Sequence record: NC_019505.1
From: Escherichia phage wV7
Direction: 5' to 3' (one strand)
Length of the DNA stretch: 64,000 nucleotides
Part shown: positions 2,480 to 40,384 of the stretch, one piece after another
Numbering within the stretch: position 1 is the stretch's first letter
Layout: each line of letters opens with the position of its first letter
The notes under the pieces: model-generated
What the model saw: the letters and a program-made list of their open reading frames with translations, nothing else
Database searches by the model: none
Told to the model about the DNA's origin: nothing
Program-made: the position numbers and the translations under genes

Positions 2480-3484
2480 TTAGCTCACCAACTCAATCCA
2501 AGCTGGACGAAGTACATCTTGCACCATTTTAACTAATTCCTTTTTAATCAAAGAAGGATTATCTGCTTGAGTTAGAGTAATACCTTCACGAGAAGTTTCT
2601 TCCAAAATATCTTGGACAGTTAGCCCCATCACCTTTCCAAAATCCTTTGGACCAATTTCGCCAATTTTAGAAATAACGTTATTTACTCGGTTCAGTGTAA
2701 CGTAACAAGCTAAAATTCCCACCAATTTGTTATCAGCTTCTGACAATTCAACTTTAGCTTTAATAGGCTTATCAGACTTTTTCTTTTCACTAAATTTAGA
2801 ATTCTTGCATTTGATGGCTACACGATTGCGATTAGGCAGCCAAGAAGGATAACAAGGTTTCAATACATATCCTTCAGCGGTAAATACTTCGCCTTTGGCT
2901 TCGGCATTCCAAACGCATTTATTTGCATCAACTAATCCAGCATGGTCTACTGTAAAATTATAATCTTGGACGACAGAATCTAAATCATTTGGCAATTTAA
3001 TAAGCTCTTCAAATTTACCGCGACCTAAAAGTGGAGCCATTTTAAATTTAAATGTATTGCAGAATGATTCCATCATATAATCATCGACATAAGTCATGTC
3101 ACCACTTTCTGTAGTGACAATAATGTCAAATACATAGAAATCTTTATCACCATAATCAACATTCTTCTGAATGCCAGGTCCAGCGAATTCGCCAAAAACT
3201 TGATAAGATACAACCGCTGAAGTTTCCATAATATCTTGTACTGCTTTAATGGAATCAGCGTAATTCTTTAGAATAATTTCATACCCAAAGAAATCTTCAG
3301 CAGGAAGAATCGGTCCAGTACGTTTAGCGCAAGTTACTTTATCACGCTCAATAATCAATGAGAAATTTGTGCCGTGAATCTTTTCACGAGCTACCCATTC
3401 GCCGCCAGTCAATCCCAAGCTATAAAGTTTTTCAATAAATTTAGAGTTGTAATGATTTTCAAGACTGCTATACTTTTTAAACAT
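2480..3484 (-). CDS. rnlB: RNA ligase 2 (Rnl2)
   Basis: 334 aa, starts [19 protein letters not shown] and contains the KIHGTN adenylylation motif; matches recalled T4 Rnl2. Confidence 0.93.
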
Positions 3485-3772: not shown

Positions 3773-3974
3773 TTTTCACCTTTTTATTAATGTGTCTTTT
3801 TCTATAGACAACTTTTTCTCGAGTCTCAAATTTATTCTTTGCAGTCATAGCTCGAGCCCATAATACAGCCACTTCTTTCGCCTGTAAGTTTAATTCACGA
3901 GCAATTTCAATGAATGACTTTCCAGACTCATGAAGTGTAAACACCACAACTTCAGTTCTCATAATCAATCTCAT
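3759..3974 (-). CDS. Small helix-turn-helix-like protein (24.3 position)
   Basis: 71 aa; segment GKSFIEIARELNLQAKEVAVLWARAM resembles an HTH. Confidence 0.5.
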   Translation of the reverse strand: MRLIMRTEVVVFTLHESGKSFIEIARELNLQAKEVAVLWARAMTAKNKFETREKVVYRKRHINKKVKNGTV

Positions 3975-4043
3975 GTTATCGAGTTGGTGCCATTATATAC
4001 ATCATTTTCTGATTGTGTTTTGTGTGCTTTCAAAATGAAGAAA

Positions 4044-4060
4044 GGGGCCGAAGCCCCTTT
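4044..4060 (-). terminator. Hairpin GGGGC-CGAA-GCCCC 3' of hoc
   Basis: Perfect stem and tetraloop followed by a U-run on the minus strand. Confidence 0.65.
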
Positions 4061-4063
4061 CGA

Positions 4064-5488
4064 TTATGGATAAGTATAGATGATACCAGTTTCTAAAGCA
4101 GTTTTATGGATGATGTATCCATTACGTGATTCTTGAACATCAACTTCTGAATAATCTTTCATCATCTTCTGAAGCGTATAACGATGCAAGTAGTACTTAC
4201 TATCTGGATCTTCAGTTTTCCAATCTTTACCTTCTTCAGTCATTTTTTGGATTTCATCCATAACCCACCAACCGCACCAGATATAAGCTGAAGTACGATG
4301 TGGAAGAGGATGAACATAAGGCAATTCACCTTCTGGTTCCGGAGCAACTTTATCAGTTACCTGAACTTGACCTGTTGTTTTAACTGTTTTACTATCATAG
4401 TCGGTTGCTGTAACGACAGCAGTAACTTCAATAGTTTGACTTCCAATAGATGAGGTGTCAACGGTGTATACGTTAGTTGACCCTTCTACAGGAGAAGAAT
4501 CTTTCTTCCATGAATAAGTAATTTGTGCTGCTTCAGGTGCTCCAGTAACATTAGCCGTAAATGTAGCCGAAGCATCTTGCTGAACGTTAATAGAAGGAGG
4601 AGTCAATGTAACCTGTGGATTCATTGTCTTCTTATTAACTGTCAATGATACTTCATTAGAAGTAACTTCCTTTTCATTGTAATTTTCTGCAGTTACTTGC
4701 GCTACACATTTAATTCTTTTTACTCCACTTGTAGTTGGAGTATAGTTAAATGTAGAGTTAGTTTCTCCACCAATTTGAGAATCATCTACATACCACTTAT
4801 ATGTAGCAGACGCTCCATCAGGTTGAGAAGCTAAGGCAGCAGTAAATTGAACTGGAGTTCCAATTACTCCAGCTGAAGGACTATTAGGAGTTACAACTAA
4901 AGTAGTCGCTTGGGTTTTCTTGTTAACAGTCAGCGACACTTCGTCAGAAGTAACGGTCTTTGTATCATAATCTGTCGCAGTTACTTGAGCTACACACTTA
5001 ATTTTTTTAACTCCGCTTGTGGCAGGAGTATAGTTAAATGTAGCGTCAGTTGCTTCTCCCACAGGAGAACCGTCGACGTGCCATTGATACGTAGCAGATG
5101 CACCTGGCGGCTGTGAATCTAAGGCAGCGGTAAATTGAACAGCTGTTCCGATTACTCCTTCCGAAGGACTATCAGGAGTTACTGTTATTGTAGTAGTCTG
5201 TGTCTTATTTTGAACTGTGATAGTTGTCGTAGCTTCTGCTGTTTCAGGTTCAGATTCAGATTCTGGAACTGTATTTGTTGCAACGACTTTAATAGTCTTT
5301 TGACCGGCAGGTCCTTTTAGTACATAACTAAAAGTTGCTTCAGCTCCATCCTGTGGAACATTATCTACACTCCAAGCATAGGTAATAGTTCCACCTTCAG
5401 TTTGACCACTGGGTGCAGCAGTAAACTGCTTGGTTTCATCAATAACTCCTGTTGGGGTTTTAGGAGTTATATCAACTGTAAAAGTCAT
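4064..5488 (-). CDS. hoc: Highly immunogenic outer capsid protein Hoc, 474 aa with four Ig-like domains
   Basis: N-terminus MTFTVDITPKTPTGVIDETKQF and C-terminus ...IHKTALETGIIYTYP as recalled for T4 Hoc; internal tandem Ig-like repeats. Confidence 0.9.
   Translation of the reverse strand: MTFTVDITPKTPTGVIDETKQFTAAPSGQTEGGTITYAWSVDNVPQDGAEATFSYVLKGPAGQKTIKVVATNTVPESESEPETAEATTTITVQNKTQTTTITVTPDSPSEGVIGTAVQFTAALDSQPPGASATYQWHVDGSPVGEATDATFNYTPATSGVKKIKCVAQVTATDYDTKTVTSDEVSLTVNKKTQATTLVVTPNSPSAGVIGTPVQFTAALASQPDGASATYKWYVDDSQIGGETNSTFNYTPTTSGVKRIKCVAQVTAENYNEKEVTSNEVSLTVNKKTMNPQVTLTPPSINVQQDASATFTANVTGAPEAAQITYSWKKDSSPVEGSTNVYTVDTSSIGSQTIEVTAVVTATDYDSKTVKTTGQVQVTDKVAPEPEGELPYVHPLPHRTSAYIWCGWWVMDEIQKMTEEGKDWKTEDPDSKYYLHRYTLQKMMKDYSEVDVQESRNGYIIHKTALETGIIYTYP
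4643..5182 (-). repeat. Tandem in-frame duplication (~270 nt each) encoding two near-identical Hoc Ig-like domains
   Basis: Protein segments TPDSPSEGVIGTAVQFTAALDSQPPGASATYQWHVDG... and TPNSPSAGVIGTPVQFTAALASQPDGASATYKWYVDD... are near-identical; matching DNA around 4630-4770 and 4920-5060. Confidence 0.8.
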
Positions 5489-34920: not shown

Positions 34921-37185
34921 TCATAATTTACAGGATGAACAATCTTCAGCTTTTGGAGTTTCTATTTCATAATCATCAGTACCAGAACCATCACGGGTAT
35001 TATGATAATAGAAATTTTTTCCGCCAAAATACCAAAAATACAAAAGGTCATCAATCATTATTGACATTGGAACCTTTCCTTTTGGAAAAATCTGCGGGTC
35101 ATAATATGTATTCGCTGAAGCTGATTGACATACCCATTTCAGCATAATAGCTACCTGCGTAAGATAAGGTTTATTACCTTTCTTAGCTAATTTCCATGTA
35201 TAATCATATAGGTCTATGTTATGTTCAATATTGGGCACGACTTGATTAAAGGAACCCTCTTTTGATTCTTTAACAGAGACTGGTCCACGTGGAGGCTCGA
35301 TACCGTTTGTACTGTTAGAAACTTGGGAAGATGACTCACATGGCATAAGTGCTGATAATGTGCTATTACGGATGCCAAAGAGCTTAAGGTCTTCCCGCAG
35401 CGACGACCAGTCACAAACGTATTTTGGAGATGCGATTTGGTCAATCTTTTTATTGTACCAGTCGATAGGTAATTCGCCTCGAGACCAACGAGTGTCTGAA
35501 TAATATTCACAAGGTCCTTTTTCTTTGGCGAGTTTAATGGATGCTTTAATGAGTCCATACTGTAATCTCTCAAATAGTTCATGTGTTAAATCGTTAGCAT
35601 CTTCATAAGAAGCAAAGTTACTTGCCAACCAAGCTGCATAGTTAGTAACACCTACACCGAGGTTACGACGCTTTTTAGCTTTTTCTGCTTCAGGAACTGG
35701 ATATCCTTGGTAATCCAAAAGATTATCAAGAGCACGAACCTGGACTTCTGCCAATTCATTAATTTTATCTTGGTCTTGCCAGTCAAAATTATCCAGTACG
35801 AATGCAGAGAGAGTACACAATCCAATTTCAGCATCAGGACTATTCACATCATTTGTTGGAATAGCAATTTCACAGCACAAGTTACTCTGACGAATAGGTG
35901 CCTTTTCACGAATAAACGGAGTATAGTTATTCGTATTATCAATGAACTGTACATAAATCCTTGCTGTTCCTGAGCGTTCAGTCATGAGCAATTCAAATAG
36001 TTCACGAGCTTTAATACGCTTTTTACGAATATTAGGGTCTTTTTCTGCGGCTTCATACAATTCACGGAAACGGTCTTGGTCTTTAAAATAAGAATAATAA
36101 AGCTCTCCGCCCATTTCATGGGGACTGAACAAAGTAATGTAATCGTTCTTTCCAAAACGTTCCATCATCAAATCATTCAGTTGAACACCATAATCCATAT
36201 GACGAATGCGGTTTTCTTCTACGCCTTTGTTATTTTTCAAAACAAGAAGATTTTCAACTTCCAAATGCCAAATAGGATAATAAGCAGTAGCAGCGCCGCC
36301 ACGAATTCCACCCTGTGAGCATGATTTAACAGCAGTCTGAAAATGTTTCCAAAAAGGAATAACACCAGTATGGCGTACTTCACCCATGCCAATCTTAGAA
36401 CCTTCAGCACGAATCATACCAACGTTAATACCAATTCCAGCGCGTTTAGAGATATATTCAACAATTGAAGCGGAAGCCTTATTGATAGACTTTAATGAAT
36501 CACCTGCCTCAATAACAACGCATGAACTAAACTGCCGGGTTGGAGTACGGCAACCAGCCATAATAGGAGTTGGCAATGAAATCTGTCGAGTAGATACTGC
36601 TTCATAAAAACGGATAACGTGTTTTAATCTATCAACAGGTTCATCTTGATGCAATGCCATTCCAATAGTCATAAATGCAAACTGTGGAGTTTCATAAATT
36701 TGACCAGTGGTTTTATCTTTAACTAGATATTTTTCTTTTAATTGCATCGCCCCGGAATAAGTAAATTCCATATCCCGCTCGTGCTTAATTTTTGATTCTA
36801 AAAATGTAATTTCTTCTGCAGAATATTTTGACAACAATTCAGGGTCGTATTTACCTTCATTTACACAGTAAGAAATATGGTCAATAAATGAACGTGGTTC
36901 ATACTGCCCATAAACATGCTTACGAAGAGCAAACATTAAACAGCGTGCAGCTACATATTGATAATCAGGTTCTTCAACCGAAATAGAATTCGCAGCGGCC
37001 TTAATGACAATAGTCTGAATATCATCAGTTGTCATTCCATCACGGAGATAAGATTTAATATTTTCATATAATTCATAAGGATCTACTGATGTTCCTTCAG
37101 CTGCCCAAGATAAAACTTTAATAATTTTTTGTGGGTCAAAGCTCTGAGAAACACCACTACTTTTGATAACATTAATTAATTGCAT
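34921..37185 (-). CDS. nrdA: Ribonucleotide reductase large subunit
   Basis: 754 aa; class Ia catalytic motifs (NLCCEI, C-terminal Cys pair CSSCKL). Confidence 0.93.
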   Translation of the reverse strand: MQLINVIKSSGVSQSFDPQKIIKVLSWAAEGTSVDPYELYENIKSYLRDGMTTDDIQTIVIKAAANSISVEEPDYQYVAARCLMFALRKHVYGQYEPRSFIDHISYCVNEGKYDPELLSKYSAEEITFLESKIKHERDMEFTYSGAMQLKEKYLVKDKTTGQIYETPQFAFMTIGMALHQDEPVDRLKHVIRFYEAVSTRQISLPTPIMAGCRTPTRQFSSCVVIEAGDSLKSINKASASIVEYISKRAGIGINVGMIRAEGSKIGMGEVRHTGVIPFWKHFQTAVKSCSQGGIRGGAATAYYPIWHLEVENLLVLKNNKGVEENRIRHMDYGVQLNDLMMERFGKNDYITLFSPHEMGGELYYSYFKDQDRFRELYEAAEKDPNIRKKRIKARELFELLMTERSGTARIYVQFIDNTNNYTPFIREKAPIRQSNLCCEIAIPTNDVNSPDAEIGLCTLSAFVLDNFDWQDQDKINELAEVQVRALDNLLDYQGYPVPEAEKAKKRRNLGVGVTNYAAWLASNFASYEDANDLTHELFERLQYGLIKASIKLAKEKGPCEYYSDTRWSRGELPIDWYNKKIDQIASPKYVCDWSSLREDLKLFGIRNSTLSALMPCESSSQVSNSTNGIEPPRGPVSVKESKEGSFNQVVPNIEHNIDLYDYTWKLAKKGNKPYLTQVAIMLKWVCQSASANTYYDPQIFPKGKVPMSIMIDDLLYFWYFGGKNFYYHNTRDGSGTDDYEIETPKAEDCSSCKL

Positions 37186-37502
37186 AAGTCCTCAACTTGA
37201 AAATCGTCTTTAAACAATCGGTTAACTATATGAGCTATTATATCACCATGACACGGCTTTGGTTTACATGTGCATCCTAGCCTCATTCCACGTAAAGGCT
37301 CTAAATGTGCTTTAGTTATTTCTCCGGATTTAATTCGACGTATAAAATCTTTTTTGAATAATTCAATGGCAGCCTCCCGGCTGCCAGCATCTTTACCGAC
37401 GTAATTTCCCCAAAATGTACCACGGTGAATATTAACATCAAAGTCGGATTTATATTTATTCACTACTCGGCATATACGGCCTGCGCGGTTGTAAGTGTTC
37501 AT
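37176..37502 (-). CDS. Hypothetical protein (nrdA.1 position)
   Basis: 108 aa ORF. Confidence 0.5.
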
Positions 37503-37731
37503 ATTGTTCTTCCGTTAAAACAGTAATATCGTAGTAACAGTCAGAAGAAGTTTTAACTGTGGAAATTTTATTATCAAAATACTCACGAGTCATTTTATGA
37601 GTATAATATTTTTTGCCATAAATGATAATAGGCTGATTTGGTCCTGGAACTTCTAACTCACTTGGATTAGGAAGTGTAAAAAGAACTACACCAGAAGTAT
37701 CTTTAAATCGTAAAATCATATATCCTCGCAA
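37456..37731 (-). CDS. Hypothetical protein (nrdA.2 position)
   Basis: 91 aa ORF. Confidence 0.5.
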
Positions 37732-37739
37732 TAATAAAA

Positions 37740-38600
37740 TTACACCGCCATCTTTCCTTTAATAGGAGGATGTGATTCATAGTTGTTAAGAACAAAATTA
37801 TGAGGCTTTGCAAATTGACTCAACCAAAATACCTGCGATTCTGTGTCCCATTCATCAAATTCATCTGGAAATTTTAATTGTAATTCGCATAAATCCATAG
37901 GTTCACGACATAAAATTTCTTTACATTGTTCTACGTGATTCATATAGATATGAGTATTACCACCAGAAAATATCAAATCTCCCGGAATAAGATTACACAT
38001 CTTAGCTACAATATGAACTAACGTAGCATATGATGCAATATTAAATGGAAGACCGAGGAAAACATCTACCGAACGTTGATACCACTGAAGGTCAAGGTAT
38101 CCATTACGCACATTAAACTGATAGAACATATGACAAGGCGGTAATGCCATATATTTAAGTTCAGCTGGATTCCACGCAGAAACAATTTGACGCCTATCAT
38201 TTGGCAGTTTTTTAATACGATCAATAACTTCTATAATTTGATCTACACCGCCAAAATCACGCCACTGTTTTCCATAAATTGGACCAAGTTCACCGCTATG
38301 GTATCCTAAATCTTTTGCTTGATTTTCGTAATTTTCATCCCAGACTGTTTTGCCTTGAATTAATGAATCATGTTGAATTAATCGCAAATCATTGACATTT
38401 GTGCTTCCTGATAAAAACCATATTAGCTCAGCAATGCATGCATTCCAGGCGAGCTTTTTAGTTGTTACTGCAGGAAAACCTTTGGTTAAATCCCAACGCA
38501 ATTTAGTACCGAACAAAGCAATTGTTCCTGTGCCCGTTCGGTCATCGGTTTCATAGCCATTTTCAAAAATGTCTTTAATTAAATCTTGGTATTGTTTCAT
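37740..38600 (-). CDS. td: Thymidylate synthase, uninterrupted
   Basis: 286 aa continuous [29 protein letters not shown]...; active-site region PPCH present. Confidence 0.93.
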
Positions 38601-38645
38601 TTAGTACCTTATATAAATTATAATACATTTTATGAAGCTAAATAA

Positions 38646-38993
38646 TCAATACGGTTTAGCATCAAATTTTCTCTCAATTTCAGGCGTGAAATATAATTCT
38701 TTACCGCGTTTGGAAAAGCGACCAATAATATGATAATTATTCTCATCAAACGTGATATTACCAATATCCATAGCTTTCAACCAAATATCGATATTTCTAT
38801 CCAGCTTTATGTCAAAATTCCAATACGGAGAACTATTACCGAAAATACTACAAGCGGATTCAGTGAAACAACTGCTATAAATCTTGTCTTTAGGAACTAC
38901 TAATTGATAGACACCTTTAATAAACTGAGGACCCTGCCACTTTGGCTGTTTCTCATCTTTTTCTAATAGAATAGGGTAATAATTAAAATTCAT
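38646..38993 (-). CDS. Hypothetical protein between frd and td
   Basis: 115 aa ORF with intergenic spacing on both sides. Confidence 0.55.
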   Translation of the reverse strand: MNFNYYPILLEKDEKQPKWQGPQFIKGVYQLVVPKDKIYSSCFTESACSIFGNSSPYWNFDIKLDRNIDIWLKAMDIGNITFDENNYHIIGRFSKRGKELYFTPEIERKFDAKPY

Positions 38994-39012
38994 ATTTCCG
39001 CCGCGCGTTATT

Positions 39013-39971
<959 letters not shown>

Positions 39972-40024
39972 TTTTTAAAGCATTGCATAATAGAATTCAT
40001 CATTCATAAACTCAAATACAAAAA

Positions 40025-40384
40025 TTATATTATCTCCCATCGAAAAGGGTCAGGAGCATATCCGATAGAGTTAATCATTTTAACTAAAGTTACCATTCCT
40101 TTGTTAACTGCTTGTGCGATTTCATCAAAAACTTCATCGCTATCATCATAAAGGTCATTAAAAAGTTCTAACACGTTCTTCTGAACTTTTAATTTATGAC
40201 CAACAATCTCGCCTACAGTAAATTCGTTTCCGCCGATTCCAGTGTAAAACGTAATTACACCAGTTAACAGACTTTCGCGAGAATCTAGGTCATGTGATAA
40301 ATTAATATAAGCCATCCCGGGTGCAGTTTTAAGTTGGCAACGAATTCTTACTTGGGTAATTCCGGTTACATGAATGTCGGACAT
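40025..40384 (-). CDS. Hypothetical early protein (start set at internal ATG with ribosome-binding site)
   Basis: Track ORF 40025..40549 overlaps the upstream gene; gaggaaaataatATG at about 40384. Confidence 0.5.
   Translation of the reverse strand: MSDIHVTGITQVRIRCQLKTAPGMAYINLSHDLDSRESLLTGVITFYTGIGGNEFTVGEIVGHKLKVQKNVLELFNDLYDDSDEVFDEIAQAVNKGMVTLVKMINSIGYAPDPFRWEII

Follow-up and report, generated by a model that had tools for sequence, protein, structure and literature searches.

In phage T4 the dihydrofolate reductase gene frd and the thymidylate synthase gene td overlap by 4 nt (ATGA), with no ORF between them. In Escherichia phage wV7 (NC_019505.1) a 115-aa ORF lies between the two genes, and the question is whether it was inserted in this phage or lost from T4. 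We analysed the locus within a stretch of 64,000 nucleotides (the window). An earlier note on this DNA had described the ORF as lying between frd and td with spacing on both sides, and had stated that the two genes abut or overlap in T4. Coordinates, translation (starting with MNFNYYPILLEKDEKQPKWQGPQFIKGVYQ) and spacers of 19 nt and 45 nt agreed with this description, and the T4 overlap was confirmed.

Layout of the frd-td junction

All elements of the junction lie on the minus strand and are given here in coding-strand order.

39013..39594, minus strand: frd (dihydrofolate reductase), upstream neighbour of the ORF on the coding strand (Pfam DHFR_1, E 3.7e-19)
38994..39012, minus strand: left spacer from frd stop to ORF start, 19 nt, AATAACGCGCGGCGGAAAT (read from the sequence)
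38646..38993, minus strand: 115-aa accessory gene of the RB32ORF229c / PHROG 1928 family, ATG start, 13.7 kDa, pI 7.7
38601..38645, minus strand: right spacer from ORF stop to td start, 45 nt (read from the sequence)
37740..38600, minus strand: td (thymidylate synthase), downstream neighbour of the ORF (Thymidylat_synt, E 3.9e-94)

Over 2 kb around the junction, wV7 matched E. coli O157 typing phage 7 at 100% identity; against RB51, RB68 and Ac3 the identity was 99.8%. The wV7 td gene is contiguous (286 aa) and contains neither the group I intron nor I-TevI. The GC-rich left spacer includes a weak GGA-type ribosome-binding site and differs between Tequatrovirus alleles; a test for RNA structure in it gave nothing significant (z = +1.19). 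This spacer is missing in phage NHEP29 and in the outgroups, where the ATG of the ORF overlaps the TGA of frd.

Several further small ORFs that are absent from T4 were seen in the interval between frd and gene 32. A 126-aa ORF (39591-39971, minus strand; PHROG 8592, RB51ncORF236c) overlaps the start of frd, and ncORF237c and ncORF239c are also annotated in this interval in RB51; T4 has none of them. Within the nearby pair nrdA.1 (37176-37502, minus strand) and nrdA.2 (37456-37731, minus strand), which encode a DUF4326 and a DUF5496 protein respectively, the frames overlap by 47 nt when counted from the first possible start codons.

The ORF is an annotated gene under purifying selection

In GenBank, the RB51 and RB32 records list the ORF under the name 'RB32ORF229c hypothetical protein' and remark that it is 'flanked by 9 bp repeat'. 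RB32ORF229c / RB51ORF234 (PHROG 1928) is the same gene, with 97-100% identity at the same position and no difference. The protein and structure searches proposed in the earlier note recovered PHROG 1928, a family of unknown function (E 3.1e-36, residues 4-111 of 115, profile positions 2-125 of 126), but no characterised protein or solved fold. All 154 members of the 90% cluster of the ORF are called 'hypothetical protein'. Pfam and NCBIfam contained no matching family at E <= 0.1-1, the PADLOC defence models gave 0 families at E <= 10, and no mention of the gene names, accessions or PHROG identifier was found in the searchable literature; in a review of T4 genomes, frd and td figure only as auxiliary metabolism genes.

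Strong purifying selection acts on the ORF. Comparison of the alleles of the window, RB32 and T2, all Tequatrovirus, and of NHEP29 gave dN/dS of 0.012-0.127. By tblastn an intact ORF was found, one apparent frameshift aside, in 562 phage records; identity was >=90% in 361 of them and <60% in the other 201. In an alignment of 15 family members, with identity down to 29%, 11 columns were invariant (Q16, W19, G27, R66, G78, G91, F93, K95, G97, F102 and P104). When 1.84 billion representative proteins were searched exhaustively with a profile, 42 clusters matched; the family is phage-only and consists of stand-alone proteins of ~95-140 aa, apart from two spurious matches. The latter were long proteins with Ig-like repeats, in which weak matches had been summed, and we rejected them.

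That the ORF arose by chance, or is a decaying remnant, could be argued from the lack of a Pfam or NCBIfam family and from a T2 record in which it is unannotated. Set against a dN/dS of 0.01-0.13, intact reading frames in all but one of these phage records, motifs kept across genera and a confident structure prediction, this explanation has next to no probability, and we consider it refuted by the selection and conservation data.

The T2 record in question (LC348380.1) also labels td as 'hypothetical protein T2_235', so that annotation gaps exist in a reference genome.

The ORF is already annotated and conserved, and it is largely ordinary, T4 being the exception. The new points are modest: a tandem paralogue in other genera, an alternative cargo in JS98 and a lateral patch in NHEP29 resolved to the base.

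Distribution among Tevenvirinae

The ORF was present in about 350 Tequatrovirus-level records out of ~395 with a Tequatrovirus-type Frd, while a 39-mer spanning the T4-type junction was found in 59 records (~36 Tequatrovirus and 23 Dhakavirus-type), all counts including redundant GenBank/RefSeq duplicates and many laboratory T4 stocks. The ~36 Tequatrovirus records come from T4 stocks and closely related phages (RB55, RB59, vB_EcoM_112, HY03, SG1 and G28 among them); the Dhakavirus-type phages include Bp7 and IME08. Allowing for database redundancy, the ORF is the majority state in Tequatrovirus, at roughly nine in ten. According to the earlier note, an insertion would be refuted if both T4 and most of its relatives had an orthologue here: most relatives carry one, but T4 does not.

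Homologues outside the genus were found in Kanagawavirus (Entb_45, PEi20), Klebsiella phage Mexia, Moonvirus Merlin, Gelderlandvirus UTK0003 and three metagenomic contigs, spanning at least five other Tevenvirinae lineages. Their identity to the window ORF is 30-66%, and each one examined immediately follows frd, as the ORF does in RB51, RB32, T2 and NHEP29; in the outgroups the ORF start mostly overlaps the frd stop. Divergence of the two genes runs in parallel, with Frd 44-48% and the ORF 32-48% identical to these outside lineages. In Mosigvirus APCEc01 the frd-td junction is empty and overlapping, and most other Mosigviruses also do not have the ORF.

A second ORF of ~115 aa precedes td in Kanagawa-, Moon- and Gelderlandviruses and in metagenomic T4-like contigs. 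At the six loci it was found at the following positions.

2317-2673, 2317-2676, 2287-2634, 2309-2659, 4332-4673 and 4308-4658 (local numbering of each locus): second ORF, preceding td

Profile-profile comparison (hhalign probability 98.3%, E 1.5e-14) identifies it as a paralogue of the window ORF; it has the same size and slot, and the motifs QxKW, G[IVF]Y and GRFxKxGxE are common to both. Unlike the window ORF, it has an insertion of ~20 residues after QxKW. An HMM search of all six frames of the 64-kb window detected no further paralogues. Tequatrovirus retains only the frd-proximal copy of the tandem pair.

The junction of JS98 (EF469154.1) holds a different ORF.

2582-2788, plus strand (JS98): 68-aa ORF (MSNKLKVKDVPNAMALF...) in the frd-td slot, unannotated and unrelated to the window ORF

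This ORF overlaps both the frd stop and the td start (ATGA / TAATG) and had no match in NCBIfam. With other cargo in JS98, one or two paralogues elsewhere and the lateral gain in NHEP29 described below, the junction behaves as the variable slot that the earlier note had suspected.

During these searches we also came across a 195-aa protein on a 100-kb NCBI contig, which shares its last ~35 residues, without a difference, with the C-terminal end of the homologue from the Klebsiella phage (GNVMVKDDVVSIIGRFEKRGDQLFFTPLQEKFNA). Its N-terminal part is unrelated, and the protein is probably either a product of recombination or a chimera created in assembly or annotation.

A resident gene missing from T4

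Synonymous divergence of the ORF among Tequatrovirus alleles was 0.08-0.29. For the same allele pairs the first 345 nt of td gave dS of 0.12-0.31, and the T4 flanks differed from the window by dS of 0.20-0.27; the flank values are from td for all pairs and from frd only for window, T2 and T4, since frd of RB32 and KMB39 has an indel. As the synonymous divergence of the ORF falls in the same range as that of td, the ORF is as old as the genus at this locus. Its base composition (GC 0.325, GC3 0.293) also resembles that of its neighbours. T4 is the outlier, because the ORF is in the majority in the genus, its dS equals that of td and syntenic homologues occur in at least five other lineages. The description of an "extra ORF inserted" between frd and td therefore holds in that the ORF is accessory and extra relative to T4; it does not hold as a gain in this phage, where the ORF is the resident majority state of the genus. 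We favour the view that this is a genuine small accessory gene of T4-like phages with its home slot directly after frd, and that it has probably been lost from T4.

Pairwise alignment showed that the T4 junction equals the window junction minus exactly 416 bp. The search for short flanking repeats that had been suggested earlier gave a 9-bp direct repeat at both ends of this segment.

39011..39019, minus strand: left copy of the 9-bp direct repeat TAAATGAAA (coding strand; repeat search and T4 alignment)
38595..39010, minus strand: 416-bp segment missing in T4 (T4 alignment and repeat spacing of 416 nt); its ends are ambiguous by 9 nt, and 38604-39019 fits equally
38595..38603, minus strand: right copy of the 9-bp direct repeat TAAATGAAA (repeat search and T4 alignment)

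The left copy includes the frd stop (TAT AAA TGA) plus a vestigial ATG-AAA-TAA, and the right copy includes the td start (TAA ATG AAA). If one mismatch is allowed the repeat lengthens to 12 nt. Six direct-repeat families were found in the AT-rich 541-bp stretch, so short repeats are common here; TAAATGAAA is distinguished by sitting exactly on the boundaries of the 416-bp indel. The repeat arises naturally, because the frd-stop and td-start signals both read (T)AAATGAA.

T4 would have lost the ORF by a precise 416-bp deletion, through recombination or slippage between the two repeat copies, and such a deletion would restore the translationally coupled ATGA junction. In T4, loss of the sequence between short direct repeats is a mutational mechanism known from the classical rII deletion studies. 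The T4 junction has the form expected of these events, as one 9-bp copy is kept and everything between the copies is gone. It differs from the classical deletions in that the repeat is formed by functional stop and start signals, and in that the event is deduced from sequence comparison, while the rII deletions come from experimental studies. A deletion in T4 appears to be the most economical reading of the indel, and it is from this that we infer the direction of change. The overlapping stop/start signals (TAAATGAA) may thus offer microhomology both for precise gene deletion and for cassette-like exchange between genera. At this junction the T4 reference genome is atypical, and the common T-even state is frd-ORF-td.

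The same repeat is also what would be expected if a foreign or mobile accessory gene had been inserted into a T4-like abutting frd/td junction in the lineage of this phage, with duplication of a 9-bp target. Its copies lie exactly on the indel boundaries, and the left one keeps a td-like ATGAAA at the frd stop (ATG AAA TAA, resembling a td start that was retained). The ORF is surrounded here by non-coding spacers that are absent from the outgroups, an empty overlapping junction is shared by T4, Dhakavirus Bp7 and most Mosigviruses, and the same ORF did enter an empty Mosigvirus junction. We nevertheless regard such an insertion as unlikely. The ORF is the ~90% state in Tequatrovirus with td-like synonymous divergence, its base composition agrees with that of its neighbours, no endonuclease, transposase or integrase domain was found in it, and at least five other lineages have homologues at this position whose divergence tracks frd. 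Any insertion would predate diversification of the genus and would not be specific to this phage. It may still be envisaged that the ORF entered an empty junction long ago, at the base of Tequatrovirus, because the junction is mostly empty in Mosigvirus and Dhakavirus and the window-type spacers are absent in the outgroups.

Lateral exchange into a Mosigvirus

NHEP29 (PQ511150.1) is a Mosigvirus, and both flanks of its junction are 95-97% identical to APCEc01. It carries the ORF at the following position.

3786-4133 (NHEP29): ORF, overlapping the frd stop and ending 15 nt before td

The NHEP29 ORF is 89.9% identical to the window in nucleotide sequence (dS 0.56), whereas identity is 61% for its frd, 74% for its td and 78% for its nrdA, and the dS of these genes is saturated (>2). 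A four-way alignment placed the change from Mosigvirus-like to Tequatrovirus-like sequence in the last ~8 nt of frd and the return to Mosigvirus-like sequence ~30 nt into td. As judged from this alignment, a Tequatrovirus-like patch of ~400 bp was recombined into the Mosigvirus backbone of NHEP29. Blastn identity of ~80% over ORF plus td had suggested purely vertical inheritance in Tequatrovirus and Mosigvirus; the identity and dS of the individual genes overturned this. The combination of Mosigvirus flanks with the ORF was seen in only 4 records, and for most Mosigviruses the match was split in two, the ORF being absent between the parts. Insertion, as claimed in the earlier note, is therefore the right description for the NHEP29 lineage but not for the window phage. 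JQD51 (PV204681.1) and JoYop (OR769032.1) look like further mosaics at the frd-td locus.

Through conserved sequences at the gene boundaries, ordinary recombination during co-infection would allow related phages to exchange the ORF as a cassette. Spread by this route, and not as a mobile element, is indicated because the protein has no nuclease or transposase domain.

The suggestion that the junction had received a mobile gene did not hold up: an endonuclease or transposase domain was not found in the ORF, and its GC and GC3 are like those of its neighbours. An autonomous mobile element was rejected on the same lack of nuclease and transposase domains and on inverted repeats at chance level, the sole candidate in 541 bp being a 9-nt AT-only pair, one of eight pairs at chance level. 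With transposable elements, IS elements or MITEs the segment has in common a repeat resembling a target-site duplication (TAAATGAAA at both ends), which is also explained by the stop and start signals; it differs from IS elements and MITEs in the absence of a transposase domain and of terminal inverted repeats. Like the T-even homing endonuclease genes (I-TevI in td, mobE by nrdA, segG by gene 32), the ORF is optional and located at nucleotide-metabolism genes, and both are polymorphic among T-even phages and spread laterally, the homing endonuclease genes doing so in mixed infections. Unlike them, the ORF has no GIY-YIG, HNH or LAGLIDADG domain and at 115 aa is too small, and no nuclease was found among its fold matches. 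Lambdoid-phage morons offer another likeness, being extra, dispensable genes between genes that abut in a close relative. In contrast to morons, the ORF has no terminator or evident upstream promoter, is embedded in an operon and is the majority state rather than sporadic.

We also considered whether the empty junction had hitchhiked with the td intron, ~550 bp away, through co-conversion by I-TevI. The td group I intron (I-TevI) was found in ~197 phage records, many of them ORF carriers (RB7, IME340, SHFML-11, NBG2, ECO4 and Pu-Krd-SF4 among them). As the intron occurs in so many ORF-carrying records, presence of the ORF and of the intron is unlinked, and hitchhiking was rejected as a general explanation.

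Expression signals around the ORF and td

No terminator-like sites were detected in 37600-40200; one transcript therefore presumably covers frd, the ORF and td, and the ORF may be an early/middle gene. The 45-nt right spacer is identical in window, RB32, KMB39 and T2, though the ORFs of these phages differ at dS 0.08-0.29. Promoter-like sites were found downstream of the ORF, directed at td.

38649..38620, minus strand: sigma-70-like site, promoter-like, facing td
38615..38638, minus strand: MotA-box-like GCTTCA, 12 nt, TAATTT (pattern scan)
38607-38610: AAGG ribosome-binding site for td, in the right spacer

We infer from the sequence pattern that GCTTCA-12 nt-TAATTT is a candidate T4-type middle promoter for td. 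It falls in 30 nt of the window-type spacer that are absent from NHEP29. The pattern GCTTYA-N11-13-TANNNT had 15 matches in the 64-kb window against 6.7 +/- 2.7 expected (~2-fold enrichment), 11 of them on the minus strand, which is consistent with T4-type middle promoters in a region transcribed leftward. The window-type cassette would thereby exchange the translational coupling of frd and td for a 45-nt spacer of its own, with a ribosome-binding site and a MotA-type promoter-like site.

Predicted structure and possible functions

The AlphaFold model of the ORF (pLDDT 82.2, pTM 0.77) is beta-rich, with strands at 6-12, 27-34, 62-64, 80-82, 86-96 and 99-104 and a helix at 68-76. The predicted order of elements, b1-b2-b3-helix-b4-b5, is that of OB folds. 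Comparison of the model with solved structures gave no significant match, and it did not superpose significantly on OB-fold domains. The weak tails of both fold searches consisted mostly of OB-fold ssDNA binders, and single-stranded nucleic-acid binders of this fold (SSB, RPA, Teb1, HIN), which have the same order of elements, dominated them. The invariant Q16-x-K18-W19 and G91-R-F93-x-K95-x-G97 would sit in the ligand-gripping loops of an OB fold.

A match to TagH/TarH (E 9e-4, 22 bits) was judged to be chance, since it covers only the stretch from ABC signature to H-loop, including Walker B. An ABC-transporter ATPase was rejected, as Walker A is missing from this beta-rich protein of 115 aa.

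From the model we tentatively suggest, with low confidence, that the protein is a dispensable, non-enzymatic, beta-rich binder of ~14 kDa that recognises nucleic acid or a protein partner and acts early in infection. Such a binder may serve host takeover, counter-defence or nucleotide metabolism as an accessory factor.

With similarly low probability, the protein may counter host defences or aid host takeover, with an effect on some hosts only. The protein is small, dispensable, restricted to certain lineages and encoded in an early operon, it is polymorphic for presence and absence in two genera and has spread laterally, and it belongs to a tiny phage-only family (42 representatives among the 1.84 billion proteins searched). 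Many such small early ORFs of T-even phages turn out to be host-specific modulators. Its patchy presence and lateral exchange therefore make a host-specific counter-defence role possible, although neither similarity to a characterised protein nor mention of the ORF in the searchable literature was found, which speaks against it.

The constant linkage to frd makes a role in dNTP synthesis possible as well. The protein could work together with dihydrofolate reductase and thymidylate synthase, perhaps as an adaptor or regulator of the T4-type dNTP-synthesising complex. In every lineage examined the ORF is immediately 3' of frd and upstream of td, usually with translational coupling (ATGA/TAATG), and this position is retained even after lateral transfer. 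T4, most Mosigviruses and Dhakaviruses, however, live without it, an unrelated ORF occupies the same slot in JS98, and the searches detected no nucleotide- or folate-binding domain; gene order is generally conserved in T4-like phages, which makes adjacency alone a weak argument. We regard this partnership as improbable, more so than counter-defence. As a conserved, selected and always frd-linked early protein, the ORF product is a reasonable, though not urgent, candidate for functional study.

A bolder proposal, to which we give a very small probability, is that PHROG 1928 and its tandem paralogues represent a new lineage-specific OB-like fold that would work in physical association with the phage dihydrofolate reductase and thymidylate synthase, or would shield the dNTP supply from nucleotide-depleting defences of the host. 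If this is true, loss of the ORF from T4 hid the component from sixty years of T4 genetics.
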